In this document: positions 9,156 through 26,000 of the stretch, piece by piece | How the letters are laid out: each line of letters opens with the position of its first letter | Position numbering within the stretch: position 1 is the stretch's first letter | Source: Alphaproteobacteria bacterium | GTDB lineage: Bacteria > Pseudomonadota > Alphaproteobacteria > UBA828 | Assembly: GCA_965207055.1 (NCBI GenBank) | Contig: CBDBLP010000002.1 | Coordinates: 336,152-400,151 of the forward strand | DNA: 64,000 nt | Direction of reading: 5' to 3' | Notes under the pieces: model-generated | What the model saw: only the letters and a program-made list of their open reading frames with translations | Told to the model about the DNA's origin: nothing | Databases searched by the model: none | Made by a program: the position numbers and the translations under genes

Positions 9156-9636
9156 GGATCGTCGGGTCCTTGCCGGCTCCTGCCGGCGTAGGCGGCCGCG
9201 CGGCGCGCCGATACTGCCCGAACGTAGCGCAAGTGTCTGCCGCTCGCGAGGGCCGGCACAACCGGGCGCGAGCGCCGCTGCGAATCGGCGAGAGACCGAC
9301 GCGTCGCGGCTGGTTATCGCACACAAATGCAGCTATAATACTGATTATGATATATCTTATACGCTATAGAATAAACTGAGAACTGTATACCATATCTAGG
9401 GCAAAAATCTATATATGGTGGGATATGATAGACTTACCAGCGACTCGAGATAGCTCGGATGCATTCGTGAACGCTAACGCCCACGAACGCTGGCCTTCTT
9501 CTGGTGCCCCGAACCGCTAATTCCGCTCATCGAAGAATGCTGTTGTCGGCCCGCGGGCTGAGGCGCTTCTGCCTCCGCTGGCCAGGCCTCGTCGTCTTCG
9601 CCGTCGTCATCGCGTTCTCAGCGCTCTGTAGCCGCG

Positions 9637-9692
9637 GAAAAGTCGTGGCCAGTCACGCGAAAGGTCGTGGCCAATCGCGCGGTGGCCACGAC
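9637..9692. repeat. Iteron-like repeats: two direct 22/23-bp copies plus one inverted copy of the GTCGTGGCCA core
   Basis: GAAAAGTCGTGGCCAGTCACGCG (9637-9659) and GAAAGGTCGTGGCCAATCGCGCG (9659-9681) match at 20 of 23 positions. The inverted core TGGCCACGAC is at 9683-9692. Confidence 0.7.
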
Positions 9693-9920
9693 GAGTAGAA
9701 AATAGCGGGTGCGAAGCTGCGGTGTGGAACAGTTAGCCGGAGCGCGCGATGGCGCGGATAACCGCCTCGCGGGAGGGCGCACTACTCCCCGCGCCGCCGG
9801 TGTTTGCGGGCTCTACGGAGACTCGCTGCGGCCACCCTGAAGGGTCGGTGCATTGCCCCTGCATGGCCCCATCACGCCTGTTTCAGGGCCGAGGAAGCGG
9901 GATTGTCGCACCCGAGTGCC

Positions 9921-10391
9921 CTACACATGCCAGCGCCTGTCCCGGCCTACCGGATCGAACAGCCGAGGCCGGCGGCCGTTGCGCTTCGCCCCGGTCCAAT
10001 CCACCGCAACTATGGTCGCGTCCGCCAGGCCTGCCCCACGGAGGTCCGCCATGGAAAAATCCGCCGCAGTGAGGTCAGCGCCCATCATGGCTGCGTCACA
10101 CAAGCGAGCGGACGCGAAGCAGGCGCGCGTTGCGTCCGCTTGTCGCAGGTCAGCCCCGATCAGCACCGCCTGGCGGAGCGAAGCTGCGATCAGGTCCGCC
10201 GAATGAAGCACCGCGCCGGTGAGGTTGGAATTGCTGAGGTCGCTGCACGTCAAATCCGACCCAGAGAGGTCAGCCTGCACGAGCCGAGCCCCGGCCAGCC
10301 GCTTGCACCGCAGGTCCAGGCGCCGCAGATCGGCGCCGGCAAAGTCCCGCTCGCCGGCCGCGTATCGGGACAGCAATTCATCGGCCGTCAT
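9921..10391 (-). CDS. Pentapeptide-repeat protein
   Basis: 156 aa. A(D/N)L-type pentapeptide periodicity is visible throughout (ADLRRLDLRCKRLAGARLVQADLSGSDLTCSDLSNSNLTGAVLHSADL...). Confidence 0.85.
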   Translation of the reverse strand: MTADELLSRYAAGERDFAGADLRRLDLRCKRLAGARLVQADLSGSDLTCSDLSNSNLTGAVLHSADLIAASLRQAVLIGADLRQADATRACFASARLCDAAMMGADLTAADFSMADLRGAGLADATIVAVDWTGAKRNGRRPRLFDPVGRDRRWHV

Positions 10392-10484
10392 CGAGGCGTC
10401 TATATCGCCCTGCCACGGCCCGCGACAAGCCCCTTCCCAACATCGCGCGGGAGGTAACAGGCGGCATCTGAGTGCCCGCCTGCA

Positions 10485-13400
10485 TCAATACTCCACTTCG
10501 GACGAAGGGCTGGCGATCACGTTATCGCGGAGTTGGTTGTACCGGTCCCGCATCCTGCGCTCGATCTCGTCGGCAACCTCTTCGGCGACCTCGCGCGGAT
10601 CGGCGGCGTTTGAATGGACCGTGAGAGAACCGATGACCGACTGGATATTTACCGTGCCCGCCCGCTCGGCCCTGCGCTGACGGCGCCCCCTCGGCCCGGA
10701 CGCGGCCGCCTCCGCCTCGGGCTCCGGCGGTGTCCACACCTGATCGCCGTGGCGCTCGGCCATATCTGCGGCCCGCCGCCGCCGCCGGCGCTGAACGTGC
10801 GGAACCTGTCTGAGCCCGACGCCGCGCCAGTTTCCGATCTCCGGTGGCGCGTTCGGGTCGCGCTTGGGAATCAGGTCGAGGATCCACTGCGCCGCGTTCT
10901 CGCTCTCCTTCGAGGTCCAGCCTGGATCGAATGCCGCCTTGGTGGCGGCGCGGCCCGCGCTCTCGCCGCCCATAAAGCCACCCAGGCCGGCCAGGAGCGA
11001 CCCGCCGAATCGGATCGGTCCCGGCAGGGATCGCATGAGGCTGCCCGCGACACGCCCGGCTGCTGAAGATCCAGCCAAGCCGCCGGCGAGGCCGCCCACC
11101 TCGGGTGCGACCTGGTCGTCCGGTATCGCGCCTGTAGCGATGTCGTGTGCCGTGAGGCCCATGAGCGCACCGGCGCTGGCCGGGCCGAGGCCGCGGGTAA
11201 GGAGCCGCCACAGGCCGCCAGCCCTCGGCCGCGAGCCCGGACCAGTGCCGCTGAGGCGGCCTTCGCCGACCCTTGGTCGGGTGCCGGGGCCTGTGCCGCT
11301 GAGACGACCTTCGCCGAGACGTGGCCTGGTACCGGGTCCTGTGCCGCTGAGGCCGCCGCCCCTGGGTCCCGCCCGCGAGCCGGGGCCTGTGCCGCTGAGA
11401 CGCCCGCCGCCTGACCTGGGCCGCGTCGTTGGACCTGTGCCGCCCAGGTGCGCCGGTGTGAGCCGAGGCCGCGAGCCGGGGCCTGTGCCGCTGAGACGGC
11501 CTTCGCCTGCTCTCGGCCGCGAGCCAGGGCCGCTGCCGCTGAGACGACCTTCGCCGACCCTTGGTCGGGTGCCGGGGCCTGTACCGCTGAGACGACCTTC
11601 GCCGAGACGTGGCCTGGTACCGGGTCCTGTGCCGCTGAGGCCGCCGCCCCTGGGTCCCGCCCGCGAGCCGGGGCCTGTGCCGCTGAGACGACCTTCGCCG
11701 AGACGTGGCCTGGTACCGGGTCCTGTGCCGCTGAGGCCGCCGCCCCTGGGTCCCGCCCGCGAGCCCGGACCAGTGCCGCTGAGGCGGCCTTCGCCGACCC
11801 TTGGTCGGGTGCCGGGGCCTGTGCCGCTGAGACGACCTTCGCCGAGACGTGGCCTGGTACCGGGTCCTGTGCCGCTGAGGCCGCCGCCCCTGGGTCCCGC
11901 CCGCGAGCCGGGGCCTGTGCCGCTGAGACGCCCGCCGCCTGACCTGGGCCGCGTCGTTGGACCTGTGCCGCCCAGGTGCGCCGGTGTGAGCCGAGGCCGC
12001 GAGCCGGGGCCTGTGCCGCTGAGACGGCCTTCGCCTGCTCTCGGCCGCGAGCCAGGGCCGCTGCCGCTGAGACGACCTTCGCCGACCCTTGGTCGGGTGC
12101 CGGGGCCTGTACCGCTGAGACGACCTTCGCCGAGACGTGGCCTGGTACCGGGTCCTGTGCCGCTGAGGCCGCCGCCCCTGGGTCCCGCCCGCGAGCCGGG
12201 GCCTGTGCCGCTGAGACGACCTTCGCCGAGACGTGGCCTGGTACCGGGTCCTGTGCCGCTGAGGCCGCCGCCCCTGGGTCCCGCCCGCGAGCCGGGGCCT
12301 GTGCCGCTGAGACGCCCGCCGCCTGACCTGGGCCGCGTCGTTGGACCTGTGCCGCCCAGGTGCGCCGGTGTGAGCCGAGGCCGCGAGCCGGGGCCTGTGC
12401 CGCTGAGACGGCCTTCGCCTGCTCTCGGCCGCGAGCCAGGGCCGCTGCCGCTGAGACGACCTTCGCCGACCCTTGGTCGGGTGCCGGGGCCTGTACCGCT
12501 GAGACGACCTTCGCCGAGACGTGGCCTGGTACCGGGGCCTGTGCCGCTGAGGCCGCCGCCCCTGGGTCCCGCCCGCGAGCCGGGGCCTGTGCCGCTGAGA
12601 CGCCCGCCGCCTGACCTGGGCCGCGTTGTTGGACCGCCGCCCAGCCCGGCGAGCCGCGTGAACAGGCGGCCAGCCCCGCGAAGAGCCTTGAACGCGTACC
12701 AGCTGCCGGCGAGCAGGCCCACCCCGACCAGCAGCTCATCCTTGAACGAGGTGAGCGCGGTCACAACCTCGCCGACCGGACCGGTGAGCTTGTCCTGCAT
12801 CCAGGCATCGACGTCGGTCTTGGTCTCCTGGACCTTCGCGGCGGACGTTTCGGCCATCCTCGCGGCATCGCGCGACAGCATGTCCGGCGGCGCCTCGATC
12901 GTGAGAAAGCGTTCGTAGTCGGCCCGCCCCTGCGCCGTGAAAAGGCCGGAAATCGCGCGTACCCCTTCGGCGTCGATAATCCCCGACAGGCGAGTGATGT
13001 CGCCGTCTACTGCGTCGACGACCTCCTTGACGATGCGGTCCAGCGGGCGGAAAGCGCCCGTGGCGTCGCGAACGTTGACGCCGAGCTGCTCCCAGATCAG
13101 GTCGATCTTCTGAGCATCGGAGAGCGTGCGCAGGAACGCTTCCACGGCGGTCGTCGCCTGTTCGCTCGATCCGGTGGACTGGCGGGCCATCTGGGCGAAC
13201 GCGCCGAGCTGGCGAGCGGCGGCGGGGCCCTGGTAGCCGAGGCGGGCAAAGGCCGAGGTCAGACGCTCGCCCTGGGCGGCCATGTTGCCGACCGTAAACG
13301 CGCCGGACTTCCCCTGCGCCGTCCACAGGTTGAAGGCCCGCGCGACGCCGGCCGGATCGGTGATGCCGAGTTTGCGCATCTCGGCGGCAAGGCGGCCGAT

Positions 13401-14174
13401 GGCGTCGCCAGTGCCGCCCGATCCCTGAATTGCCTGGGCGACCAGCACCAGATTGTCGCGCACAAAGTCCAGGTCTCCCGTCTTCTCGATGACTGCCTCG
13501 GCGGCGGCGAGAAGCTGCGACGGATCGAGGCGTATTTCCTTCAGGTTGGCAGTCGCGTTCACTTCCTGCTGAAACCGTTTGATCTCTTCCCTGGACCGCC
13601 CGGTCTGTATTTCGAGCCGCGCGTAGCGCTGCTCCAGGGTGAGCATGCGCTTGAGGCCACTGGCGATGGCAAAGCCGCCGCCTGCAATTCCGAGGACGCC
13701 TGCGCCCAGGCCGATTCCGCCGCGCAGCCTGCCTGCGGTACGGGCCGCGAGGCCGGCTTCCGTGCGGAATCCCTTCAGGCGCCGGGTGAGGCGGCCAAGG
13801 GACCGCTCGCCGTCCCGGCCGGCCCGGCGGAGCCCGTGGCCGAGGCGGTTTGCTTCCTGGGTGGTCCGCTGGATCTCGCGCCGCGCGCCGCGCGCGCCCT
13901 CACGGACGCCGCGGCCCATGAGCGAGCCGCTGCGGCTTGCCTTCATCAATCCGCCGCTGAGGCGGCTCGCTTCCTTGGTGGTCCGCTGGACTTCGCGCCG
14001 TGCGCCGCGCGTGCCCTTGGCGACGTTGCGGCCCATGAGCGAGCCGCTGCCTGCGGCCTTGCGGAGGCTGCCGCCGAGGCGCTCGGTGTCCTGCGCCGCC
14101 CCCTTCGCGCCGCGGCGGAAGCGCCCCGCCGCGAGGTCGAGGAGGACGCCTACGCGATAGGTGGAATCGGCCAT
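10485..14174 (-). CDS. Phage tail tape-measure-like protein with a large internal G/P/R-rich repeat array
   Basis: 1,229 aa. Residues about 180-420 resemble the TP901-type tape-measure N-terminal domain (LEIQTGRSREEIKRFQQEV..., LGITDPAGVARAFNLW..., AFLRTLSDAQ...). Gly-rich hydrophobic segments follow. Confidence 0.7.
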   Translation of the reverse strand: MADSTYRVGVLLDLAAGRFRRGAKGAAQDTERLGGSLRKAAGSGSLMGRNVAKGTRGARREVQRTTKEASRLSGGLMKASRSGSLMGRGVREGARGARREIQRTTQEANRLGHGLRRAGRDGERSLGRLTRRLKGFRTEAGLAARTAGRLRGGIGLGAGVLGIAGGGFAIASGLKRMLTLEQRYARLEIQTGRSREEIKRFQQEVNATANLKEIRLDPSQLLAAAEAVIEKTGDLDFVRDNLVLVAQAIQGSGGTGDAIGRLAAEMRKLGITDPAGVARAFNLWTAQGKSGAFTVGNMAAQGERLTSAFARLGYQGPAAARQLGAFAQMARQSTGSSEQATTAVEAFLRTLSDAQKIDLIWEQLGVNVRDATGAFRPLDRIVKEVVDAVDGDITRLSGIIDAEGVRAISGLFTAQGRADYERFLTIEAPPDMLSRDAARMAETSAAKVQETKTDVDAWMQDKLTGPVGEVVTALTSFKDELLVGVGLLAGSWYAFKALRGAGRLFTRLAGLGGGPTTRPRSGGGRLSGTGPGSRAGPRGGGLSGTGPGTRPRLGEGRLSGTGPGTRPRVGEGRLSGSGPGSRPRAGEGRLSGTGPGSRPRLTPAHLGGTGPTTRPRSGGGRLSGTGPGSRAGPRGGGLSGTGPGTRPRLGEGRLSGTGPGSRAGPRGGGLSGTGPGTRPRLGEGRLSGTGPGTRPRVGEGRLSGSGPGSRPRAGEGRLSGTGPGSRPRLTPAHLGGTGPTTRPRSGGGRLSGTGPGSRAGPRGGGLSGTGPGTRPRLGEGRLSGTGPGTRPRVGEGRLSGTGPGSRAGPRGGGLSGTGPGTRPRLGEGRLSGTGPGSRAGPRGGGLSGTGPGTRPRLGEGRLSGTGPGTRPRVGEGRLSGSGPGSRPRAGEGRLSGTGPGSRPRLTPAHLGGTGPTTRPRSGGGRLSGTGPGSRAGPRGGGLSGTGPGTRPRLGEGRLSGTGPGTRPRVGEGRLSGTGPGSRPRAGGLWRLLTRGLGPASAGALMGLTAHDIATGAIPDDQVAPEVGGLAGGLAGSSAAGRVAGSLMRSLPGPIRFGGSLLAGLGGFMGGESAGRAATKAAFDPGWTSKESENAAQWILDLIPKRDPNAPPEIGNWRGVGLRQVPHVQRRRRRRAADMAERHGDQVWTPPEPEAEAAASGPRGRRQRRAERAGTVNIQSVIGSLTVHSNAADPREVAEEVADEIERRMRDRYNQLRDNVIASPSSEVEY
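11215..12645. repeat. About 30 tandem in-frame copies of a 48-bp (16-aa) unit organised in higher-order repeats
   Basis: The unit is GEGRLSGTGPGSRPRx. The TPAHLGGTGPTTRPRS variant recurs at 528-bp and 384-bp spacing (11 and 8 units). Long stretches are nearly identical at the DNA level. Confidence 0.85.
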
Positions 14175-14177
14175 CGG

Positions 14178-14666
14178 CTAATTCGGCGGCCCGGCACCGG
14201 CGAAGCGCCATTGCGTGCCTGGAGAGGTATGCACGGCCGCGCGGTTCTTGGTCGGGGTGGCAACCCCGGACAGGTCCGCGTCGCCGACCCAGGTGCCGCC
14301 CATGTCCGCATCCGTGAGCACGGCGCCCGCCAGGTCGACGGCGCTCATATAGGCGTGGCGCAGGTCGGCACGCTCGAGGTTCGCGCCAGCCATATAGGCA
14401 TTGGTCAGGATCGCATGGCGCAGGTCAGCGGCGCCCAGGTACGCGCCGGCAAAGCAGGCTCCGATGAGATTCGCCCCCCGAAGATCCGCGCCGCCGAGAA
14501 AGGCGCCAGCGAAGCGCGATCCCTCCAAATCGGCAGCTTGGAGACAGCACCCGGTGAGGTCCGCCCCCGCAAAATCGGCGAAGGGCAGACGCGCCGCCCA
14601 GAAGTCAGCATGCGACAGGTCGAAGCCGGCAAAATCACGGCCGGCTACGAGCAGTGCGGCCGCCAT
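14178..14666 (-). CDS. Pentapeptide-repeat protein
   Basis: 162 aa with continuous pentapeptide periodicity (ADFAGADLTGCCLQAADLEGSRFAGAFLGGADLRGANLIGACFAGAYLGAADLRHAIL...). Its stop is 4 nt upstream of the tape-measure start. Confidence 0.85.
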   Translation of the reverse strand: MAAALLVAGRDFAGFDLSHADFWAARLPFADFAGADLTGCCLQAADLEGSRFAGAFLGGADLRGANLIGACFAGAYLGAADLRHAILTNAYMAGANLERADLRHAYMSAVDLAGAVLTDADMGGTWVGDADLSGVATPTKNRAAVHTSPGTQWRFAGAGPPN

Positions 14667-14667
14667 G

Positions 14668-15666
14668 TCAGGCGGCCCGCGCGACCAAGTCGAAATTCGG
14701 ATCGTTCACGAGCGCGACGGATGACAGGCCGGTTACCTCGCCCGCGCTGTCGTGCGTGAGGGCCGGCGACAGGTGCCGGTACTCCCCGTTTGCGATCGCC
14801 GCAGCGGCCGCGTCGCCGAGCTGCATGTCCGCGTCGAGTCCGCCGTTCCCGTTGACGCGGAAATTCGAGAGCCAGCCCTCGGCCCGCGTGCTGCCGGCGA
14901 AGGTCGGCGAAACGCGCTCCGACCTATGGTCGAAGTCGATGCGGGGCGCCACGGCCTGCGCGTTGATGCGCGCCGCGAGCGCGGCCATGCTCTTGACCCG
15001 AAAGCGGCGGCCGTCGCGGCCTGTCAGGTAGCCGCCGCGCGGGGGAGGAATCACCTCCATCGTGAGCGAAGCGCCGCGCAGGTTCAGGGAAACCACCCAA
15101 GGATTGAGTGCAGAATCCGACGCCGCCATCATCGCCCGCTGGCGCGGCGGTGCGCTGCCCGGCGTTTTGCTGGTCAGCGCCCTATAGAATACCGCTCGCG
15201 CGTCGCGGTGCTCCATGGCGACCTCGCCGAGCCGATAGAACACGCGGGCGGTGCCCGCTTCGTCCGGATCGCCGCTACCGAGATCAATGTCCATGACCTC
15301 GGCCACCGCGCGCTTCTCCGCAGGCAAGGCGGCCACCCATGCCTGGACTACCAACTTGATGCTCTTGTCGCCGCCCTCCGCCATGAGGCCGATGGCGAAG
15401 GCGTCCCGCGAGGCGAAGTCAACCCCGCCCATCGCCTCGGCCACCACGTCGTGGGGCGTAGGTATGAGCGCCTGGCGAATCTGTTCCTGGTCGACATGCA
15501 TGCCCATGGCGCCCACGCCGTACCAAAAGCACGCCGTGGCCTTTTCGCCCTTCTCGCCGGCCGCGTAGAGCGGCCCGAGGCCTACCGATTCGGCGGCGCG
15601 CTTGCGCCGAGCCTCGGCGGCCCCGCACCATGCAGCGATTATGCTGTCCGGACCGCCCAACATCAC
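14668..15666 (-). CDS. Protein with a C-terminal Mu gpI-like (Mu-like_Pro) prohead protease domain and an unknown N-terminal half
   Basis: The C-terminal half (IPPPRGGYLTGRDGRRF...RIDFDHRSE...AEGWLSNFRVNGNGGLDADMQL...ANGEYRHLSPAL...GLSSVALVNDPNF) parallels Mu gpI landmarks recalled from memory: RARDGRP, IDYEHQ, AGWF, EYRYISPVF, ALTNxPAL. Confidence 0.6.
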   Translation of the reverse strand: MMLGGPDSIIAAWCGAAEARRKRAAESVGLGPLYAAGEKGEKATACFWYGVGAMGMHVDQEQIRQALIPTPHDVVAEAMGGVDFASRDAFAIGLMAEGGDKSIKLVVQAWVAALPAEKRAVAEVMDIDLGSGDPDEAGTARVFYRLGEVAMEHRDARAVFYRALTSKTPGSAPPRQRAMMAASDSALNPWVVSLNLRGASLTMEVIPPPRGGYLTGRDGRRFRVKSMAALAARINAQAVAPRIDFDHRSERVSPTFAGSTRAEGWLSNFRVNGNGGLDADMQLGDAAAAAIANGEYRHLSPALTHDSAGEVTGLSSVALVNDPNFDLVARAA

Positions 15667-16175
15667 GCCGCCCTCTGGCCGCGCAGCTGCGCCAGGCGGT
15701 CTTCGGCTGCCCGCTCGGCCGGAGTGAGTGCCGCCCGGCGGGCCTTCTCGGCCTCGGCCGCTTCGCGCTCGGCCGCCTTGCGCTCGCCTCTCTCTTTCGC
15801 CAGGCGCTCGCGCTCGGCTTTCTCGGCCGCCTTGCGCTCGGCCTTCTCGGCGGCCTCGTCCAGCGCGCGCTGCTGGGCCTCCGCCTCCCGCATTTCGGCG
15901 GCGAACTGGCGCGCCTCGATCATCCGCGCCTGGATGCGCTCAATGATTGTGACGGCATTCTGGTGCGCGGCAGCCACCTTTCTCCAGTCGTCAACGGCGG
16001 CTTCGCAGTAGTTCTCATCGCCGCTGTACCGGCGGCCGCATATCGACCCCTGAAACTCGGCGTCGTGCGAAACTCGCGCCAGCTCTCGCCGGTCCTTGGT
16101 ATCAGCCTCGCCGAGAGCGGCCAGCGCCTCCGCCAGGGTGGCCGCGTGGCGGCCGGGATCACTCCATTTGCTCAT
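15663..16175 (-). CDS. Coiled-coil, charge-repeat protein (scaffold-like), function unknown
   Basis: 170 aa from the ATG at 16175, which forms an ATGA overlap with the upstream gene. The C-terminal half is AEKAERKAAEKAERERLAKERGERKAAEREAAEAEKARR. Confidence 0.5.
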   Translation of the reverse strand: MSKWSDPGRHAATLAEALAALGEADTKDRRELARVSHDAEFQGSICGRRYSGDENYCEAAVDDWRKVAAAHQNAVTIIERIQARMIEARQFAAEMREAEAQQRALDEAAEKAERKAAEKAERERLAKERGERKAAEREAAEAEKARRAALTPAERAAEDRLAQLRGQRAA

Positions 16176-16549
16176 GTTTCCTCGCTTCGTTGCGGCCCGT
16201 CCGGGCCGGCCAGTATCGACGTTGCGTCCGCCGCGAGTCTGTGTGTCGCCCGCGCCAGCGCATACGCTCTCAGTTGCTCGCGCGTCCAGCCGCTGCGACC
16301 GGTTCCGGCGACATTGCGGGCGGCCGGCGCCAGGTGGCGCGCCTCCGCCGAATCGGGGTGGTCGCGCCTGTAAAACGGTTTGCTGTAGATCTCGAAGGTC
16401 CCAGGGGCGGGCGCAAACGGTCCCATGAGCTCGCTGAGATATCGGGCGGCTTCCTTCGTTGTCAGGAGGCCTTCGTATGCAGCGAGGCGGGCCATGGTCG
16501 GCTGGCTGTCGTTTCCGGGTTGCGGCAGGTCCACCATGCGATACCACAC
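16172..16549 (-). CDS. Small putative DNA-binding protein (HTH-like LLTTKEAARYL)
   Basis: The ORF is coupled to the downstream gene. The motif GLLTTKEAARYLSEL resembles MerR/excisionase-type HTH proteins. The real start may be the internal ATG at 16495. Confidence 0.4.
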   Translation of the reverse strand: MWYRMVDLPQPGNDSQPTMARLAAYEGLLTTKEAARYLSELMGPFAPAPGTFEIYSKPFYRRDHPDSAEARHLAPAARNVAGTGRSGWTREQLRAYALARATHRLAADATSILAGPDGPQRSEET

Positions 16550-16640
16550 TTCACCGGGGGTTTTTGGAACAAAACGGAGAAAATTGCAGAGGGCCCTGGG
16601 GGCGGCTCACCACGGGACACGACCGGACAATGTGTGCGCG

Positions 16641-17780
16641 TCAGACCACCCGATCGGCGGCGCGTGCGGCACCTTCCTCGGGCTCTTCGTCGTCCATCTG
16701 AAGGAAAAGCGCACGGATATCGGCTTGGAGGCGCTCGGACTCCTCGTCGCTCAGATTCCTTCCTAGGGGACCAATCGTGGTGATAACCAAATCAATGATT
16801 TGGTCGAAGAGGTCATTGTGGTCGCCAACACTGGGCGCCTCAGCCCGATCGCGATTCGCCAAGGCCTTGACGCGTGGCGGCAGGGGCTGTCCCGGTTCAA
16901 GCCTGCCGTCTCCGTGCTCATCTTGCCAGCGATTGAGCCAGCGGCGAATTGTCGAGACATTGGGTGCCTCGCCATGGTGTTCGATCAGCGCCTGTCGCGC
17001 ATCCTTGGCCGTGAGATGGCGACCGCGAAGCGTGGCGAGGCCCTCGAGCGTCTTCTGCATCGACGCGTCCAGCGACGTCGGTCTTCCCGTTCGGGGCCTG
17101 TCGAGTAGCGCCTCCTGTCGCGCTATTGGGTTGGCGATCCCCTTGACCTTGCCGCGCCAAGCCCCTACCGCAGATGCTGACACGCCTGCCTCTTTCCCAG
17201 CTATGGCATCAGCCTCGGCGCGCGACTTGCCCTCGCTCTTGAGGGCGTCGGAGCGCTCGATCACTGCAAGCCGTTGCGTGGCCTGTTCGCGTTGGGCTTC
17301 TGTGGCGGGTTCCGAGGCGCCGGCACCCAACACCGCTTTCGTTCCGGCGTCCTGCAGCGGCTGGTGCGGAATGGCTGCAACGGTCAGTGCCGCCACCTCC
17401 CGGCGTAAGGTGGCAATCTCGTTGAGAAATTCTCCAAGGCGGTTGCTGAGAGCGGCTTGACTGCGCTCTACGCGCTGCCGGTCTGGCGCCTCATCGATGT
17501 CGCCCGCGCCGCCCGCGAGACCCCACTCTCGAGGCGGGCCGATATAGAACTCAAGGCCCAGAGCGTCACATACGTCGGCGACGCGCGAAAGCTTTGGCTC
17601 GTGCCCGTCGAGGATGCTGCGTATAGCATCACGCGGCAGTCCGGCTGCCGTTGCGACGCCGGCCCTGGAACGACGGCCAAGCGCCGCCTCGACCGCCTTC
17701 CGAAAATCATCGAGAACTGGCGGCATAGGGTACTTGTGCCACGTTTGCCGTGCGAACACAACGGGGCGCGTGGAATACAC
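16641..17780 (-). CDS. Repressor-like protein: N-terminal XRE-type HTH plus a domain shared with the MuA-like transposase N-terminus
   Basis: The XRE-like stretch is GVATAAGLPRDAIRSILDGHEPKLSRVADVCDALGLEFYIG. Residues about 160-237 align with the transposase N-terminus. The gene is divergent from the early operon, as for Mu c. The start is uncertain (GTG 17780 or ATG 17729). Confidence 0.6.
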   Translation of the reverse strand: MYSTRPVVFARQTWHKYPMPPVLDDFRKAVEAALGRRSRAGVATAAGLPRDAIRSILDGHEPKLSRVADVCDALGLEFYIGPPREWGLAGGAGDIDEAPDRQRVERSQAALSNRLGEFLNEIATLRREVAALTVAAIPHQPLQDAGTKAVLGAGASEPATEAQREQATQRLAVIERSDALKSEGKSRAEADAIAGKEAGVSASAVGAWRGKVKGIANPIARQEALLDRPRTGRPTSLDASMQKTLEGLATLRGRHLTAKDARQALIEHHGEAPNVSTIRRWLNRWQDEHGDGRLEPGQPLPPRVKALANRDRAEAPSVGDHNDLFDQIIDLVITTIGPLGRNLSDEESERLQADIRALFLQMDDEEPEEGAARAADRVV

Positions 17781-17827
17781 TCGACGAATCTTTTGACTCT
17801 TCGTGTAATTCGTGCCACGATCGACGT

Positions 17828-18142
17828 ATGGATTCGACGCTGAGGTTGATGGAGCTCTATTCGGAGCACCGCGGCATTGCCCCGACGACGTTGGGCAGGC
17901 TCACGGTCAGCTCCTCTACTGTGGCAAAGCGCATCGGCCGAGGAGCGGTCACGATCCGCACCACCCGGAAGATTGAACGTTGGCTTTCCGACCATTGGCC
18001 AGCGGGCCTTGAGTGGCCATCCGATATCCCTCGACCGACGCCCAACCAATCACAACCTGCGGCCCGGCCAGAGGGGGGGGCGATGACTGACCCCTCGCCC
18101 GGCACCGGCGCGCGCGCCATCCGAAACCAACTTCACACCTGA
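17828..18142 (+). CDS. Small protein in the Ner position (first gene of the early operon)
   Basis: The internal ATG at 17828 gives MDSTLRLMELYSEHRGIAPTTLGRLTVSSSTVAKRIGRGAVTIRTTRKIERWL. The call rests on position and size only. Confidence 0.4.
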   Translation: MDSTLRLMELYSEHRGIAPTTLGRLTVSSSTVAKRIGRGAVTIRTTRKIERWLSDHWPAGLEWPSDIPRPTPNQSQPAARPEGGAMTDPSPGTGARAIRNQLHT

Positions 18143-18156
18143 CAGGGAGGATCACA

Positions 18157-18480
18157 ATGAGCGACGCGACACATGGCGACAATAGAAGAACGGTTGCGCT
18201 GGCGGGCGACGCGCTGACGGCCGTGGGCGACGTGCGCAGGCTCTCTGAGCACTTCGCCTGGTATGCGGACCAGGTCGCCTCGGAGGACGCTAAGGGGTGC
18301 AAAAACGGTCTCGCAGTCCTGGAATCCGCATTGCGCAGCATGAATGCGCTCGCAGACGAGGCGGAGCGGCCGCTCGAAGAGGTCTATGACCGGGCGTGCA
18401 GGGAGGAGATGGACCATGGCTCTCACCAGGAACCAGTACGCAGTTGTCCACATTGCGCGGAAGGCGCTCGGCCTGTCTGA
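18157..18480 (+). CDS. Hypothetical early-region protein
   Basis: 107-aa ORF in operon context. Its 3' end overlaps the GemA-like start by about 65 nt, so its extent is uncertain. Confidence 0.3.
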   Translation: MSDATHGDNRRTVALAGDALTAVGDVRRLSEHFAWYADQVASEDAKGCKNGLAVLESALRSMNALADEAERPLEEVYDRACREEMDHGSHQEPVRSCPHCAEGARPV

Positions 18481-18880
18481 CGGGGAATATCGCGAGGTTC
18501 TGCGAAAGATGGCCGACGTGGAGAGCTCCAAGGATCTCGACCAGGACGGCTTTGAGCTGGTCATGCAGGGCTTCGCCGCCATGGGCTACCGCTCTGATTT
18601 CACCAAGAGTTTCTACGGCCGCCGTCGAGATCGGGCCACACCGGCGCAGGTCTCCCGAATCCGCCAGCTCTGGGGCGAGTACACCGGGGGCGGTGGCGGG
18701 CAACTCTCCCTCGACAATTGGATTGAGCGCACCTTCCGGGTCTCTGCGCTGAGATTTCTCACCGCCGAGCAGGCGGAGAAGGCTGTCAAGGCCTTGTGGG
18801 CCATGCGGAATCGCCAGAAGGCCGAGCGGCGCAAGCGGCGGACCACCGCCACACCCGCTGCGGTGGGGCCTGCGGAGTGA
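18416..18880 (+). CDS. GemA-like (Mu gp16, DUF1018) regulatory protein
   Basis: MALTRNQYAVVHIARKALGLSDGEYREVLRKMADVESSKDLDQDGFELVMQGFAAMGY... is the typical DUF1018 opening. Confidence 0.65.
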   Translation: MALTRNQYAVVHIARKALGLSDGEYREVLRKMADVESSKDLDQDGFELVMQGFAAMGYRSDFTKSFYGRRRDRATPAQVSRIRQLWGEYTGGGGGQLSLDNWIERTFRVSALRFLTAEQAEKAVKALWAMRNRQKAERRKRRTTATPAAVGPAE

Positions 18881-20622
18881 CACGCACGGCGCACCACGAG
18901 CCCCGCGATGATGGGGCCTGGGAACGCGCCAGCGAGGCGCAGCGCGCTGCGGCCACGGCGCGCCTCGAAGCCGTGCGGCGAGCCGTTGCCCTCCACGCCG
19001 AAGGGCTTCCGTGTGGAGATGCGGATGCGCTCGCGGCCGAGGAGGCCGGCGTCTCGGCCAAGTCTGTCAGGCGTTGGCGTAGGGCGGTCAAGCGCGCGCC
19101 GCGCGGCATGGAGCTCGGCGCGCTGATTGACAGGCCCCGCACCGGCAGGCCGGCGGGCAAGTGGAGCGGCGCCGGGGCGCGGGAGCTCTGGCGTTTCTGG
19201 TGCAGCGACTACATGCGCGAGGAGGCGCCGCCCGCGCCGGCCGTACACCGGCGCCTCGCCGACGTAGCGGGGCAGCGGGGCTGGGAGCTCCCGCCGCTCG
19301 ACGCCTTCGTCCGGCGCACCAGGAAGGAATTCACGCGGACGGAGATCGTCCGTGCCCGGGAGGGCGCACTCGCGGCCATGAACCTGGTGCCCCACCAGAC
19401 CCGCTCCGTCGCCGGCCTCAAGCCGCTGGACATCATCAACGGCGACGGGCGCCGCCACGACGTGCTGGCGACGCTGCCCTCCGGCAAGGAGGGGCGCCCC
19501 GTAATCTGGGCGTGGCAGGACGTGCGCACGCGCAAGATCCTCGCCTGGCGCGCCGGCGAGACCGAGAGCGCCGACCTGGTGCGGACCTCGCTGCACCAGG
19601 TCATCGACGAACATGGCGTGCCCGGCCGGGTCCTCATCGATTCGACCCGCGCCGCATCGGCAAAGTGGGCGACGGGCGGACAGCCCGGCCGCAAGCGCTG
19701 GCGCTCCACCGACGAAGAGCTGCCAGGCCTGCTGAAGACGCTGGACATCGGTTATTCGGCGACGAAGGTGGACCGGGACGCGGCCGGCCGGGGCAAGGGC
19801 CGCGGGCGGGCCAAGCCCGTCGAGCGCGCGTTCCTCGATCTCGCCAACCATATCGACACGCACCCACTGCTGGCCGGCGCCTACACCGGCCGCTCGACGG
19901 TCGACCGGCCCGAGACCCACCGCATGCGTCCGGTGCCGTGGGAAACCTTCATCGACGTCGTCACCCGCTGTGTCGCCGAACACAACGCCCGCGAGGGGCG
20001 GCAGACCGAGGCCGCTGCGGGCCGGAGCTTCGACCAGGTGTGGGCGGAGGAGATCGCCGACACCGTCGTCAGCCGCCTGTCTCCGGCGCAGGCGGCGATC
20101 CTGCTGCTCGCGGCCGAGCCCTCCACGATCGACCGCTCCGGCTGCCTGATGCTGAAGGCGGGCAGGGGCGCAGGGCTGCCGGCAAACCGCTACCACAATC
20201 CCGACCTGGTCGAGCGCACCGGTGAGCGGGTGGTCGCCCGCTTCGATCCCGAGGACCTGCACGGCACGGTCCACGTCTTCGACGCCAAGGGACGCTACGT
20301 CTGCGCCGCCGGCTGCATCGCGCCCACCGGGTTCGGCGACACCGCTGCCGCCAAGGAGTGGGAGGCCGCGCGCCGACGCCGGCGCCGCAGCGCCGAGCAA
20401 GGGCTCGCGGCGCAGCGAGATATGGACGAGCTGCAACGCACCATGGCGGCGCTGCCCCCGACGACGGCAGCGCCCGAGCCCCAGCCCGCCGCCGTCCGTC
20501 TCGTGACGGGCGAGAGCGTGCCGCGGCCCCCGACCGGCGGTGATGTGCCAGCCCCGCGCGGCCGCAGTGCATTCATGACGGCGCTCAGGACCGTCCGGCA
20601 GATCGAGGAGAGCGAAGAATGA
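18877..20622 (+). CDS. MuA-like DDE transposase
   Basis: The GTG at 18877 overlaps the GemA-like stop (GTGA). N-terminal HTH modules are present. The catalytic core has DIINGDGRRHD, VLIDSTRAAS and AKPVERAF. The C-terminal region is typical of Mu-transposase-family proteins. Confidence 0.75.
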   Translation: MTRTAHHEPRDDGAWERASEAQRAAATARLEAVRRAVALHAEGLPCGDADALAAEEAGVSAKSVRRWRRAVKRAPRGMELGALIDRPRTGRPAGKWSGAGARELWRFWCSDYMREEAPPAPAVHRRLADVAGQRGWELPPLDAFVRRTRKEFTRTEIVRAREGALAAMNLVPHQTRSVAGLKPLDIINGDGRRHDVLATLPSGKEGRPVIWAWQDVRTRKILAWRAGETESADLVRTSLHQVIDEHGVPGRVLIDSTRAASAKWATGGQPGRKRWRSTDEELPGLLKTLDIGYSATKVDRDAAGRGKGRGRAKPVERAFLDLANHIDTHPLLAGAYTGRSTVDRPETHRMRPVPWETFIDVVTRCVAEHNAREGRQTEAAAGRSFDQVWAEEIADTVVSRLSPAQAAILLLAAEPSTIDRSGCLMLKAGRGAGLPANRYHNPDLVERTGERVVARFDPEDLHGTVHVFDAKGRYVCAAGCIAPTGFGDTAAAKEWEAARRRRRRSAEQGLAAQRDMDELQRTMAALPPTTAAPEPQPAAVRLVTGESVPRPPTGGDVPAPRGRSAFMTALRTVRQIEESEE

Positions 20623-21578
20623 CCGAGACCGTCACCGCGTTCCCCGGCCCGGACGCGATGCCCACCGCTCACGAGGCGGCCGTAGAGGCATGCCGGGCGG
20701 AGATAAAGGCCACGGGCCTCTCCATCGCCCAGGCGGCACGCGAGATGGACCGCGTCTCCAACACCACGCTCTCGAAGTGGCTGCGCGGCGTCTATGACGG
20801 CGACGTGCCGGCGGTCACCGAGTGCGTGATGGCCTGGCTTGCGACACGTCAGGAAAAGGCCCGCCGCGACATGGGCGCGGCGGGGCTCGATCGCTTCGCC
20901 GATCTCCGGGTCACTGCGGAGGTCGAAGACGCCCTCAGCTATGCCCAGGCCACCGGTGACATCGTTCTCGTGCACGGCCGCTCCGGCTGTGGCAAGAGCT
21001 GGGGCGTAACGCGCTACTGCAACGGGCACGGCGCCACCCATCGCCTCACCGTCACCAAAGCCGTGGTGAGGCTGGCCGGGCTGGTCAACCGCATATCGGC
21101 TGCCGTCGACGCGGGCACCGGCCATTCCTCCACCCTCGCGGCCGAGACGGCGGTGATCCGCAAGTTGGAGGGGCGGGGTGCGTTGCTCTGCATCGACGAG
21201 GCGCAGCGCCTCTCGGTCCCGCTTCTCGACGAAGTCCGCAGCATCCGCGACGAAGCCGGTTGCGGCGTCGCGCTGATCGGCGACAACAGGATCTGGAATA
21301 CGTTGACCAAGTCCGAAGACTGCGATCAGATCGTCGGCCGCATCGGAATACGCCTGCCCCTGGAGCCCACCTACGATTCCGACATCCTCGAGCTCGCCCG
21401 CAGCGTCCTCGGCCGCGATCCCGGCAAGGGCGAGATCAAACGCCTCAGAGCAGCCGCCTGCGGTGCGGGCGGGTTGCATGCGCTGCGCCGACTTCTGGCC
21501 CGCGCCTGGATGATCGCGCGTGCCGGCGATCGACCGATCGCGGCGGACGATGTTGCCGCTGCGGCCGAGGCGGCGTGA
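20619..21578 (+). CDS. MuB-like AAA+ transposition ATPase
   Basis: N-terminal HTH (GLSIAQAAREMDRVSNTTLSKWLRG), Walker A GRSGCGKSW and Walker B LLCIDEAQRL. Its start overlaps the transposase stop. Confidence 0.75.
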   Translation: MTETVTAFPGPDAMPTAHEAAVEACRAEIKATGLSIAQAAREMDRVSNTTLSKWLRGVYDGDVPAVTECVMAWLATRQEKARRDMGAAGLDRFADLRVTAEVEDALSYAQATGDIVLVHGRSGCGKSWGVTRYCNGHGATHRLTVTKAVVRLAGLVNRISAAVDAGTGHSSTLAAETAVIRKLEGRGALLCIDEAQRLSVPLLDEVRSIRDEAGCGVALIGDNRIWNTLTKSEDCDQIVGRIGIRLPLEPTYDSDILELARSVLGRDPGKGEIKRLRAAACGAGGLHALRRLLARAWMIARAGDRPIAADDVAAAAEAA

Positions 21579-21609
21579 GTTTTCTCAGCGAACACCGGGG
21601 CGCGTAGCG

Positions 21610-22653
21610 GTGGCCGGGAGATTCGGCGGGGCCTTCGCCCCCACGCCCTTCGATCTGCACCACGGCTCCACGCTGCGGGTGCTGACCAGGGACAACGCCC
21701 GCAGGGTCGACAAGCTGCTCTCGCAGTGGGGCGGGGAAGGCCCCGTAACAAGCAAGTTGCGGGACGCCATCACCGCCGAACACGATGCGAAGGTCTTGCG
21801 TGCGGTGACCGAGCCGCTCTGCCGGGGCTGGTCTCTCCAGTGGATCGCGAACTTCCTGGAGCGGGAGCCCCATCTGCTCCCTCCAGCTGACTACCGGGAG
21901 TTGCGGTTGGGTCGGGACGCGTCCGGTGGCGGCTGGTACCCTGAGACGGTGGCCAGAATATTCCGGCGCAACGGCATTTCCACCGTGGATGCCACCTGGC
22001 GGCACAAGCTTTGCGAGGCCGTCGAGGCAGTGGTTGGTCACGCGCCCCACGCCGGCTGCGACTTCAAGCAGGCCGTGCGCGAGATCACGGATAGGCGCGT
22101 CCTTACTGAAGCCCAGGCGCGGGCATGGCAGGCGCGGATCGAGCCGCCCTCCGACAAATGGGGGGTGAGGACGCTCAAGGCGTTTCTCATGCTCGGCGGC
22201 GGCGACTATGGGGCCGTGCACACCCCTCCTGCCGAGTACCAGGCCGGTCTGTGGCGGGAGCACATTGGGTGCCGCTGGCTGGACGGCGAATCACCTGAAG
22301 CGATCGCAGACGCGCTGGATGCGGCCGGCGTTCTCACGCCCTCCCAGCAGCGCGCTCTCTACGAGGGGCGGCTCGTGTGGAAAAGGAAGTGGACCGCCTC
22401 GACCGTCCGCGGCCTGGTGCGGCGGCGGGGCAAGCACCGCACCTGGTCAGAAGCGGAGAGGCAGGCGCACCGCTGCGCCTCTCGCGGGCACATCTCCCCG
22501 CTCCGCGCTGTCGGCAAGAGCGCACGTGCCGTAGCCGACGCGCTGAACGCTGCCGGCGTCCTAACGCCTTCCCAGCAGCGCGCGAGGGATCAAGGGCGGG
22601 CACCGCCCGATGCCCGCTGGAGCGCCGGCTCCGTACTTCGCCTCGCCGCTTGA
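21610..22653 (+). CDS. Protein with three serine-recombinase 'Recombinase'-domain-like modules and no catalytic domain
   Basis: Module 1 is WIANFLERE...GGGWYPETVARIFRRNG, module 2 is IADALDAAGVLTPSQQRALYEGRLVWKRKWTASTVRGLVRR, and module 3 is VADALNAAGVLTPSQQRARDQGRAPPDARWSAGSVLRL. The start is uncertain; the GTG at 21610 is the first start codon after the MuB stop. Confidence 0.45.
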   Translation: MAGRFGGAFAPTPFDLHHGSTLRVLTRDNARRVDKLLSQWGGEGPVTSKLRDAITAEHDAKVLRAVTEPLCRGWSLQWIANFLEREPHLLPPADYRELRLGRDASGGGWYPETVARIFRRNGISTVDATWRHKLCEAVEAVVGHAPHAGCDFKQAVREITDRRVLTEAQARAWQARIEPPSDKWGVRTLKAFLMLGGGDYGAVHTPPAEYQAGLWREHIGCRWLDGESPEAIADALDAAGVLTPSQQRALYEGRLVWKRKWTASTVRGLVRRRGKHRTWSEAERQAHRCASRGHISPLRAVGKSARAVADALNAAGVLTPSQQRARDQGRAPPDARWSAGSVLRLAA

Positions 22654-23074
22654 CTCTGGTGAGCGCAACCGGATAACGGGAGCGCTTTTGCCGTTTTGCG
22701 CCAGTTAAGCGATTTCGGCGCCGCCGCACTCTACTTTCCCTGAACTTAGACTCCCGGAGCCGCGAAGCCCCCATGCCGGGGCTGACGCCGCTCTGACTCA
22801 GTATTGCGCTCATAACGTTAAGAAGTCGTGGGAAACGCCTTCCGGAGGCCTTGATCGCAGCGCGCGCCACCCACCACGGGCGCCACGTCACCGGCCCCTC
22901 AGCGCTCGTTCTGGATAACCGGCCCGACTGTGCGGCGCCCATTCATATGCCCTGCACGGTCCTTGTATCCCGCTGTCACCGCCGGTTTCCGGCCGGCGCG
23001 GCGCCCTTGCCCGACTGCTCTCCGCACCCGCGCCTGGCGCTCCGGGCGGATCGCGAGATTCGAGATGCTTCCGG

Positions 23075-26000
23075 ATGATTCCACCCATCGCACCTCATCA
23101 GGCCTACTCAGGACTAGTCAGCCCACGACTTAACCGTATCTACACGCTCCTCTCCACCTTCCTAGGACCTCAGCCCCACGCCCAGAGCCAAGACAGGAAT
23201 GCTACCGATATTTGGGTCGACGAAGGCGGGAATGTAGAGGCAAGCACTGCCACGTTGACGATCAACGAAGGAGAGACCAAGAGCTACAGCGTGCGACTCA
23301 CGAAGCAACCACATTCGGAAGCCGACCAAGACTGGTGGGTCATGATCGTGGTCGACGGCAAGCGGCGCAACGACAGATTCTATCCCAACGAAGAGAATCC
23401 GATCGTCAGCTGGTCACCGTCGATCGGGAGAACATTCGACAGGGGCAACTGGAACCGATGGAAAGACATCACAATTACGGCGCACCAGGATGACGACGAC
23501 GATGATCACACAATAATCTTTTCCTCCGAACTGTGGGATCACGACGCCTACTGTCCTCCAGACTTGCACGGGGGTGGCACACCCCTGGCGATGGTGACCG
23601 TCCACATTATTGACGACGATGGCGACTTGCCGAGCCTGTCTATCGAAGACACGACGGTCGACGAGGGAGACGAGGCAGAATTCGTCGTAAAGCTGAGCAA
23701 GGTGAGCGACGAGACCGTGTCGGTGAGGTACGCGACGTCGGGAGGAACCGCCACCGAGGGCACGGACTACACCCGTGAAACCGGCACACTTACCTTCGAG
23801 CCTGGCCAAACACAAAAGTCCATCGAAGTACAGACAACCCAGGACGAGCTCGACGAACCGAACGAGGAGTTCTCCCTAACCCTGAGCAACCCCGACCGCG
23901 CGGCACTGAGCAGGGGCACGGGAACCGGGACGATCAAGGACAACGACGATCCGAATCTCTCCATCGCGGATGCGACGCCGGTGGTCGAGGGCGGGACGGC
24001 AGAGTTCGTCGTGACGATGAGCATAGAGAGCACGCGAAGCGTGACGGTCAACTACCAGACCAGGAGCGGGACGGCAGTCGCGGGACAGGATTTCCAGACG
24101 ACGTCGGGCATCCTGACTTTCAACCCGAACACCACGCAGCAGACCATCTCGGTGCCCACAACCGACGATGCGACCGACGAGGTGGACGGGGAGACCTTCA
24201 CGGTGACGCTGAGTGCTCCCAACGGCGCGACGCTCGAAGACGGCTCCGCAACGGGAACCATCAACGACAACGACGAGGCGAAGCTCTCCATCTCGGATGC
24301 CACGGCGGTTGAGGGAAACCCGGCGCGATTCGACGTGACGCTGAGCCCGGCGAGCGACCGGACCGTGACGGTGAGCTACGCGACGTCGGGGGTGACGGCG
24401 ACCGAGGGCACGGACTACACCGGGACGTCCGACACAACACTCACCTTCTCGGCCGGCGAACTGCAGAAAAGGATCGAGATAGCGACCCACACGGACTCTA
24501 CCGTCGAGCCCGATGAAACCTTTAGGGTCACGTTAAGCAGCCCGAGCGAAGCGGGCATAGAGGACGGCACCGCGACGGGGACGATCACCGACGATGACCT
24601 GCCGGCGCTCTCCATCGCGGACGCGCCGGCGGTGACCGAGGGTGAGACGGCAGAGTTCGTCGTGACTCTGAGCGCGCCCAACATGGATCCCGTGACGGTC
24701 AGCTACGAAACGGCAAGCGGGACCGCGACCGAGGGCACGGACTTCACCCGGACGACCGACACGCTGAACTTCAGCGCAAACTCGAACACACCGCAAATCC
24801 GGACCATCTCGGTGCCGACGGAAGATGACGGTGACGAGGAGACGAGCGAGACCTTCACAGTCCGACTGACCAACGCCGACGGCGCAACAGTGGAGGACGG
24901 CACTGCAACGGGGACCATCAACGATAACGACGACCCAGAACCAAACCCGAATCCGAATCCCAACCCGAACCCCAACCCCAACCCCAACCCCAACCCCAAC
25001 CCCAACCCCAACCCCAACCCCAACCCCAACCCCGACCCGGGTGATAACAACGACAACAACGACAACGGGGGCGACGGAAATGGCGGCAACGGGGGCAACG
25101 GCGGCAATGGTGGGAACGGCGAGAACGGCGAGAACGGTGGAAACGGTAACGGTGACGGAAACGGCGGAAATGACGGCAACGGCGAAAATGGCGAAAACGG
25201 TGAGAGCGGTGGCAACGGTGAGAACGGCGGCAACGGAAACGGCGACGGAAACGGCGGAGGCAGCCTCCCGACCCTCTCCATTGCGGACGCGACGGCGGAC
25301 GAGGGAGAAAGAGCAGGCTTCGCAATAACGCTGAGCGCGTCCAGCGACCAGGACGTGACCGTGCAATATCGGACGGTGGACGGAACGGCGGAATCGGGCA
25401 CTGACTACACCGCGATATCCGACACGCTCACCTTCCCCTCCGGCACCACACGGCAACTTGTGGAGGTGTCCACCCTCGACGATGCATCCCGAGAAGCGGA
25501 CGAGACGTTCACGGTGACGCTGGGCAACCCCACCGGCGCGACGCTGGAAGACGGCTCCGCAACGGGGACGATCATCGACAATGACGACGCACCAACCCTC
25601 TCCATCGCTGACGCGACTGCCATCGAGGGAGGAGGTGCGGAATTCCTCGTAACGCTCAGCCCGGCGAGCGCGGAAACCGTGACGGTCGACTACCGGACGG
25701 CCAGCGGAACGGCCATCGCGGGAGAGGATTTCGACACCACATCGGGCACTCTGACCTTCGCTCCCAATGCCACAGAGCAGACCATCACGGTTCAGACCCG
25801 CGAGGACGACCTGGACGAGCCGGAAGAGATCTTTGCCTTGACGCTGAGTAACCCCGACGGGGCGACGCTGGCGGACACCAGCGCGACGGGGACGATTGTC
25901 GACGATGACGTGTCGGGCTTCTCCATCGCGGACGCGGCGGTGGAGGAGGGAAGCACGGCAGAGTTCGTCGTGACGCTCAGCGTGCCAAGCTGGCAGAGAA

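Follow-up and report, generated by a model that had tools for sequence, protein, structure and literature searches.

The 64,000-nt window analyzed here (positions 336,152 to 400,151 of contig CBDBLP010000002.1, assembly GCA_965207055.1, from an alphaproteobacterium of the UBA828 lineage) carries on its minus strand, at 10485..14174, a gene whose 1229-aa product matches phage tape-measure proteins (TMPs) and whose center is an array of 48-bp tandem repeats. An earlier reading of this DNA, made without database searches and called the sequence-only reading below, had described the gene as tape-measure-like, and its domain and family matches bear this out. Residues 223-391 score 49.5 bits against Pfam PF10145 (PhageMin_Tail; cut-off 33.2), the protein matches several PHROG tape-measure families, among them phrog_973 (1.8e-25) and phrog_794, and it falls just under the cut-off of NCBIfam TIGR01760 (tape_meas_TP901; 27.3 versus 28.8 bits). 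More distantly, tblastn matches the protein to genes annotated as TMPs in Alteromonadaceae phage B23, Shewanella phage vB_SspM_MuM16-2, and Vibrio phage martha 12B12. Judged by these similarities, the gene encodes a true tape-measure protein. It is laid out as an N domain (aa 1-505) that contains the PhageMin_Tail match and has a hydrophobic helix (..LLVGVGLLAGSWYAFK..) at its end, then the array (aa ~509-984), and a C domain (aa 985-1229) that begins ..GLGPASAGALMGLTAHD...

A search of 5.8 billion proteins returned 22 matches to the TMP at E <= 1e-5, of which 21 are clear homologues that keep the conserved N- and C-terminal domains, so the earlier description of the gene as an orphan does not stand. 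Nearly all of them come from metagenome assemblies, and one is named as originating from a Rhodospirillaceae metagenome-assembled genome (MAG). In the twelve closest full-length homologues, the N-terminal 505 aa are about 65-72% identical and the C-terminal 245 aa are 50-74% identical; two word-index protein searches found no homologue above about 72% identity. Scans for close relatives gave only one MAG among genome contigs, which was already known, and one distant locus among metagenome contigs. IMG/VR returned nothing with single-protein queries and only 27-38% identical relatives with an alignment query, and the phage and plasmid collections searched held distant TMPs only. Against four relatives, the domains that flank the array have ratios of nonsynonymous to synonymous substitution rates (dN/dS) of 0.23-0.47. 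A second in-frame repeat, with a 117-bp (39-aa) unit in 2.2 copies, lies near the N terminus of the protein (13839..14093, minus strand). By a rough motif count, full-length homologues have between one and five copies of this repeat, with five in P0017.

The array occupies 11223..12647 on the minus strand and comprises 29 complete units and one partial unit with the consensus xGEGRLSGTGPGSRPR. The sequence-only reading had placed about 30 units of 48 bp at 11215-12645, which is right to within a few bases, and its estimate that they make up about 40% of the gene agrees with the 39% of the 1229-aa protein found here. When the minus-strand open reading frame (ORF) is cut into 16-aa rows, the complete units fall at aa 521-984 (window 12614..11223), with the partial unit directly upstream of them from about window 12647. 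Tandem Repeats Finder, which the earlier reading had proposed running, reports one array at 11227..12626 with periods that are all multiples of 48 bp, and the highest score is reached with a period of 384 (84% matches, score 1516).

There are 11 distinct DNA variants among the 29 units. If the unit types are named A (SGGGRLSGTGPGSRAG), B (PRGGGLSGTGPGTRPR), C (LGEGRLSGTGPGTRPR), D (VGEGRLSGSGPGSRPR), E (AGEGRLSGTGPGSRPR), and F (LTPAHLGGTGPTTRPR), then their order is (F)ABCDEF / ABC'BCDEF / ABCD'BC'BCDEF / ABCD. As a consequence of this order, the F marker units lie 6, 8, and 11 units apart (288, 384, and 528 bp); the latter two spacings had been seen in the sequence-only reading, and the 288-bp spacing is also present. 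Adjacent 48-bp units are just 66% identical at the DNA level. Within the array, an exact repeat of 537 nt occurs at offset 528, and exact repeats of 342 nt occur at offsets 384 and 912. The 537-nt match means that the 1,065-bp tract at 11229..12293 (minus strand) is perfectly periodic at 528 bp, or 11 units. Exact repeats of 342-537 nt are beyond what chance produces; they substantiate the near-identity between blocks that had been claimed from the letters alone, and they mark the blocks as very recent, as had also been proposed. The 528-bp tract is the most recent higher-order duplication. Since adjacent units are only 66% identical and the long blocks are exact, the array has two layers, with old, diverged units at the base and very recent duplications of several units on top. 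Its DNA is 75-79% identical to the array DNA of the related complete phage L001, and the two arrays are therefore homologous and not convergent.

The repeat unit is under peptide-level constraint. Residues L6, G8, G10, P11, and R14 are invariant although each is encoded by two to four synonymous codons, and the R-P-R unit end is nearly constant and encoded by several synonymous codons. Pooled over the distinct units, the ratio of nonsynonymous to synonymous polymorphism (pN/pS) is 0.39 in the TMP frame versus 1.1-2.0 in four other frames, and it is 0.46 in the antisense frame that has third codon positions in common with the TMP frame. A 684-aa antisense ORF and a 622-aa alternative-frame ORF also cover the array, and both were rejected as genes on the grounds that the low pN/pS is specific to the TMP frame. 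This frame specificity indicates that the long antisense and alternative-frame ORFs are by-products of the repeat and its 70% GC content. The sole long ORF with a coherent product at the array is that of the TMP.

Glycine and proline together make up 47% of the array peptide. An AlphaFold2 model that covers aa 459-1229, built with an alignment of 15 sequences, gives the whole array predicted local distance difference test (pLDDT) scores of 33-43 and zero secondary structure. In the same model, the hydrophobic anchor that precedes the array is a confident helix, and the extreme C terminus forms a small beta-hairpin-plus-helix domain with a pLDDT of about 85. Taken together, the Gly and Pro content and the model, which is weak evidence for disorder as such, support an array that is not helical, in line with the earlier description of the repeat as Gly/Pro/Arg-rich and probably not helical. 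A collagen-like repeat was considered and rejected: glycine is conserved at positions 8 and 10 and usual at positions 2, 4, and 12, without triplet periodicity. The aromatic 11/18-aa class of TMP repeats was likewise rejected, as the 16-aa units are without an aromatic residue. A phmmer search of 1.84 billion representative proteins with eight array units found no convincing 16-aa-repeat relatives outside the TMP family; its one strong match is a member of that family, and nine other matches are marginal. The array has a net charge of +65 over 479 aa. Three further arrays from the family, of the helix-prone and Gly/Pro types described below, have net charges of +50 to +54, and the isoelectric point (pI) is about 12 in all four arrays measured, which include both unit types. 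This positive charge would serve contacts with the tube lumen or with DNA.

Throughout the TMP family, the segment that corresponds to the array is a spacer framed by two near-invariant anchors, ..LLVGVGLLAGSWYAFK.. before it and ..GLGPASAGALMGLTAHD.. after it. The N part spans 451-496 aa in the homologues, the middle between the anchors 123-611 aa, and the C part 193-230 aa. Family-wide, the spacer is hypervariable in both length, with about a fivefold range, and unit type, with dominant periods of 16, 32, 48, 64, or 96 aa, or else of 13 or 15 aa. The 16-aa Gly/Pro unit is that of the window, and a 32-aa Gly/Pro unit occurs in P0001 (11 copies) and P0011. A 48-aa helix-prone unit (GPxxRPNNAWRAAVR..AREAARIDREAA..) is repeated 10 times in P0004, 8 times in P0005, and twice in P0010, and the spacer of P0003 has a composite 64-aa unit made up of one 16-aa GP unit and one 48-aa helix-prone unit. 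The dominant period is 96 aa in P0002, the unit is 15 aa in P0008, P0012, and P0015 and 13 aa in P0014, and the spacer of P0006 is essentially one unit. The GxGPxxRP motif that the spacers have in common and the composite unit of P0003 suggest that the spacer types have a single origin and that different sub-segments of an ancestral spacer may have been amplified in different lineages. In P0011, which comes from a 4.5-kb contig of a low-coverage assembly, translation of one part of the array is frame-shifted (RRQRPRHQATRRRRPA... repeats), and the normal frame resumes after it. The frame-shifted stretch implies that such arrays are error-prone and is indicative of indel errors in low-coverage assemblies.

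The gene context of the relatives shows where such a TMP belongs. In five related loci (P0001, P0002, P0004, P0008, and P0009), the genes are arranged in the order sheath-tube-chaperone(PF10109)-TMP-gpU-gpX-gpD, a P2-like tail operon that sits downstream of MuA, MuB, and GemA. The P0001 contig also has Mu gp27, a terminase, a Mu portal, an ordinary I protease, and a capsid gene, which lie on an arm divergent from MuA. Given this P2-like tail operon and these head genes, the TMP family belongs to complete Mu-like contractile-tailed phages. Separately, an identical 966-aa TMP occurs twice on one 1.2-Mb contig of a MAG (CAXXMU010000006.1; loci L002 and L003), as a phage that replicates transpositionally would produce. 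Host genes directly follow gpD in L002, and a Mu F gene and more genes follow it in L003.

In the window, the TMP gene lies within a Mu-type transposable element of 13,518 bp (9627..23144). Two copies of a 5-bp direct duplication of the target site, CGCTC, flank the element at 9622..9626 and 23145..23149, and a target duplication of this length is typical of Mu transposition. Both termini read 5'-TGTAG...AAGTCGTGG inward and are of the TG..CA type (5'-TGTAGCCGCGGAAAAGTCGTGG from 9627 and 5'-TGTAGATACGGTTAAGTCGTGG from 23144 on the reverse strand), and homology to the related metagenomic loci L007 and L008 ceases exactly at 9627 and 23144. Just inside the left end, at 9637..9692 (plus strand), two direct 22-bp repeats (GAAAAGTCGTGGCCAGTCACGC and GAAAGGTCGTGGCCAATCGCGC) stand before an inverted GTCGTGGCCA core; all three are candidate transposase-binding sites. 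No further exact or near-exact copy of the 22-bp repeat was found elsewhere in the window, and no long terminal inverted pair is among the 25 longest of the 305 pairs in an inverted-repeat scan of the element. The right end, which was located through the comparison with L008, has only the TGTAG...AAGTCGTGG core in common with the left end.

The two arms of the element are divergent. The plus-strand arm consists of a GemA-like gene, MuA, a MuB-like gene, and a gene for a 377-aa protein. Its MuA-type DDE transposase (18796..20622), which is divergent from the TMP operon, matches PF02914 (2.9e-49), PF09039, PF09299, and phrog_310 (9e-105), and its MuB-like AAA+ transposition protein (20619..21578) matches AAA_22 and phrog_296 (4.4e-48). 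The minus-strand arm encodes, in order, an HTH_32 protein (379 aa), a 101-aa protein, a 169-aa coiled-coil-like protein, a fusion protein of 331-332 aa, a pentapeptide-repeat protein, the TMP, and a second pentapeptide-repeat protein, and each of these products is 57-92% identical at the amino acid level in L007. The element resembles bacteriophage Mu and Mu-like prophages in its MuA DDE transposase, MuB-like ATPase, GemA-like gene, TG..CA termini, repeated sub-terminal sites, and 5-bp target duplication. It differs from them in being just 13.5 kb long, in its two divergent arms, and in having no capsid, portal, terminase, tube, sheath, or baseplate genes within 9627..23144. The sequence-only reading, largely correct in its interpretation except for the orphan label, had overlooked this element context and the missing tail-gene neighbors. 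PADLOC models gave no match among nine element proteins, and a defense-system reading of the element is without support. A 2052-aa ORF with 12 Calx-beta domain matches (23075..29233, plus strand) overlaps the right end of the element, which contains its sole upstream ATG; its next in-frame starts are at 23255 (TTG) and 23291 (GTG). With this ATG inside the element, the insertion may have changed the 5' end or the promoter of the ORF.

The fusion protein (14668..15666, minus strand) joins a novel helical N domain of about 200 aa to the N-terminal (protease) domain of a Mu I prohead protease. Its C-terminal 130 aa align with this domain in ordinary Mu I prohead proteases, with D218, G219, R220, D244, H247, and S300 invariant, and it has no counterpart of their scaffold half. 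It is the most conserved gene of the element (92% amino acid identity to L007) and has about 15 full-length homologues. A TMP gene lies downstream of the fusion in L007, L008, L023, and L029, and none is nearby in L027 and L028. A model of the fusion has a weak likeness to herpesvirus assemblin-type proteases (Foldseek E about 0.03, probability up to 0.99), and no structure in the PDB matched its N domain significantly. The TMP lies between two paralogous pentapeptide-repeat proteins, which are at the positions that chaperone and gpU hold in complete relatives. One, of 162 aa (14178..14666, minus strand), is directly upstream of the TMP in the chaperone position, and the other, of 156 aa (9921..10391, minus strand), is downstream of it and is the last gene before the left end of the element. 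The complete phage on the P0001 contig also encodes a 427-aa pentapeptide protein (L026 1..983).

The same left arm is found in the metagenomic loci L007, L008, and L023, which have TMPs of 839, 1005, and 1168 aa, and the order protease fusion-pentapeptide-TMP-pentapeptide is kept in at least four diverged elements. Other arrangements also occur. Locus L023 retains gpD after the TMP, and in L029 a chaperone stands in the place of the pentapeptide gene upstream. A TMP is missing from L027, where the protease fusion is present, and has been lost from L028, where gpD is reduced to its C-terminal half. In the comparison with L007, synonymous divergence (dS) is 0.50 for the TMP and 0.17-0.31 for its neighbors, and dN/dS for the TMP reaches 0.47. 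The DNA of the window becomes homologous to that of L001 precisely where the TMP gene starts, at its start codon. Over aligned codons, the N domain of the TMP is 79% identical in amino acids to that of complete phage L001 versus 68-70% to those of the syntenic reduced elements, and the genes that flank the TMP are 83-92% identical to L007. The N domain of the TMP is thus nearer to L001 and the flanking genes are nearer to L007, which suggests that the TMP gene was replaced through recombination.

The usual view of long-tailed phages is that an alpha-helical ruler, with about 1.5 Å per residue, sets the length of the tail. Deletion of repeats in the TMP of phage TP901-1 shortens the tail linearly, and deletions and duplications in other TMPs change tail length linearly, with repeats proposed as natural facilitators of such changes (PMC5099701). 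Tandem repeats also contribute to TMP length variation (PMC13585406). Tandem repeats in TMPs are already known, and the window array is a variant of them. Like the window TMP, the TMPs of lactococcal phage TP901-1 and of mycobacteriophages have central repeats that lie between essential N and C parts, beside hydrophobic segments, and that alter length in frame. Trp or Phe marks their repeats, which have a length of 11 or 18 aa and belong to siphophages, whereas the window unit is 16 aa long, has no aromatic residue, is rich in Gly and Pro, is strongly basic, is predicted to be without regular structure, and belongs to a contractile-tail family. The gene order of the related loci is the same as that of P2 gpT/Mu-type TMPs (the P2 FI-FII-E/E'-T-U-D operon). 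In contrast, the window TMP has no operon neighbors, is flanked by pentapeptide proteins, and comes after a truncated prohead-protease fusion. Three features are unusual: the Gly/Pro/Arg-rich non-helical unit, the presence of helix-prone and Gly/Pro spacers within one family, and the conserved positive charge.

We think it rather probable that the array is an expandable spacer in the center of the TMP of a Mu-like contractile-tailed phage lineage of alphaproteobacteria. In complete Mu-like myophages that are related, the gene has the tail chaperone on one side and gpU on the other, and this makes an expandable ruler or spacer the most likely role for the array. Under this explanation, a cationic region of variable length between conserved N and C domains would gain and lose whole repeat units in frame. 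Slippage or unequal recombination would drive the changes in length, at first with single 48-bp units as partners and later with blocks of several units. Amplification in the window lineage would have been confined to the Gly/Pro-rich 16-aa sub-unit, which reached 29 copies with the perfect 528-bp duplication as the latest step. By analogy with the rulers of other phages, the length of the spacer would set that of the tail in complete family members.

Several observations weigh against this explanation. Tube, sheath, chaperone, gpU, gpX, and gpD were not found by tblastn in the 64-kb window, so the element by itself cannot exercise a ruler function. In an element without tube, sheath, and baseplate genes, the TMP could therefore act only through the parts of a co-resident phage, or else it is being lost. 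The reduced elements resemble a deletion series from a chaperone-TMP-U-X-D ancestor, a pattern that hints at decay. A Gly/Pro-rich non-helical ruler is at odds with the coiled-coil picture of TMPs in tail tubes, and the low AlphaFold2 confidence, obtained with so shallow an alignment, is weak evidence that the array is disordered. Most myovirus-type TMPs are without tandem repeats, which are reported to be unusual there (PMC13585406). The evidence on whether the TMP functions in the window points both ways: intact domains, moderate purifying selection, and synteny are on one side, and the deletion series and faster divergence are on the other.

Decay is the core of one rival explanation, in which the TMP is a leftover of a defective Mu-like element and the array is a neutral runaway expansion whose in-frame gains are cost-free and whose length and sequence are unselected. 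The absence of partner tail genes, the stepwise deletions in relatives that leave L028 with no TMP at all, the excess of TMP divergence over that of its neighbors in the comparison with L007, and the upper dN/dS value of 0.47 all speak for it. Moreover, all reading frames are open over the GC-rich repeat, so that an open frame is no evidence of selection. This explanation is unlikely, although it retains a real chance, given that the N and C domains are intact, in frame, and at dN/dS values well below 1, that the constraint on the units is frame-specific, and that the gene order around the TMP has been kept in at least four diverged elements. Arrays of equal length also occur in the complete family phages P0001, P0004, and P0002. 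Selection could instead act on the charge and flexibility of the array and not on a ruler. The array might, as a cationic, disordered segment, line the acidic lumen of the tube, bind the DNA end, or aid the ejected TMP in crossing the periplasm and membrane, and the variation in spacer length would then be a by-product. The four arrays with a pI of about 12 have charges of +50 to +65 though their unit structures are unrelated, the invariant R14 and the near-constant R-P-R end use several synonymous codons, and the array directly follows a membrane-like hydrophobic helix. We nevertheless consider this combination of charge selection and incidental length variation unlikely, as the fivefold length range is hard to account for by charge alone; a role for charge is in any case compatible with the ruler and does not exclude it.

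A different concern is that the array is real but that its copy number or block order is an assembly artefact, with the 528-bp duplication or other blocks mis-assembled from a repeat that exceeds the reads. Assemblies classically go wrong at exact repeats as long as these (537 and 342 nt), and the partly frame-shifted array of P0011 shows that sequencing errors occur in such arrays. However, equally long and regular arrays are present in independent assemblies (11 x 32 aa in P0001, 8 x 48 aa in P0005, and 10 x 48 aa in P0004), the window array is in frame and joined to intact flanking domains, and the source contig spans 1.39 Mb. An artefact of this kind is accordingly quite improbable. For assembly, the array is a hazard to correct copy number; it is also a potential hypervariable marker.

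A last possibility, to which we would give only a slim chance, is that the 13.5-kb element is not debris and is instead a Mu-type transposable satellite whose own TMP and scaffold-less protease would enter or remodel the virions of a co-resident complete Mu-like phage. A fusion-type and an ordinary I protease are both found on one 1.76-Mb contig, which is suggestive context only. Laboratory mini-Mu constructs and phage satellites (P4, PICI, and PLE) are, like this element, small mobile elements from which most virion genes are absent and in which one or two virion-related genes are kept. To our knowledge, no known satellite family uses Mu-type transposition. If the element is a satellite, then the alternative cationic spacers, helix-prone or Gly/Pro, would be a natural experiment to show that a tail ruler can do without a coiled coil.

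The TMPs of the family combine conserved ends with interchangeable middles, of either 48-aa helix-prone or 16-aa Gly/Pro units, that span a fivefold range of length and, in the four measured, have a similar positive charge. The tails of these phages could tell which of residue number, contour length, and charge determines how long a tail is and how a non-helical segment fits in the tube. The element itself is a clean, bounded case of a reduced Mu-type transposon that keeps a tape measure and a protease domain, and it raises the question of whether Mu-like phages have satellites.

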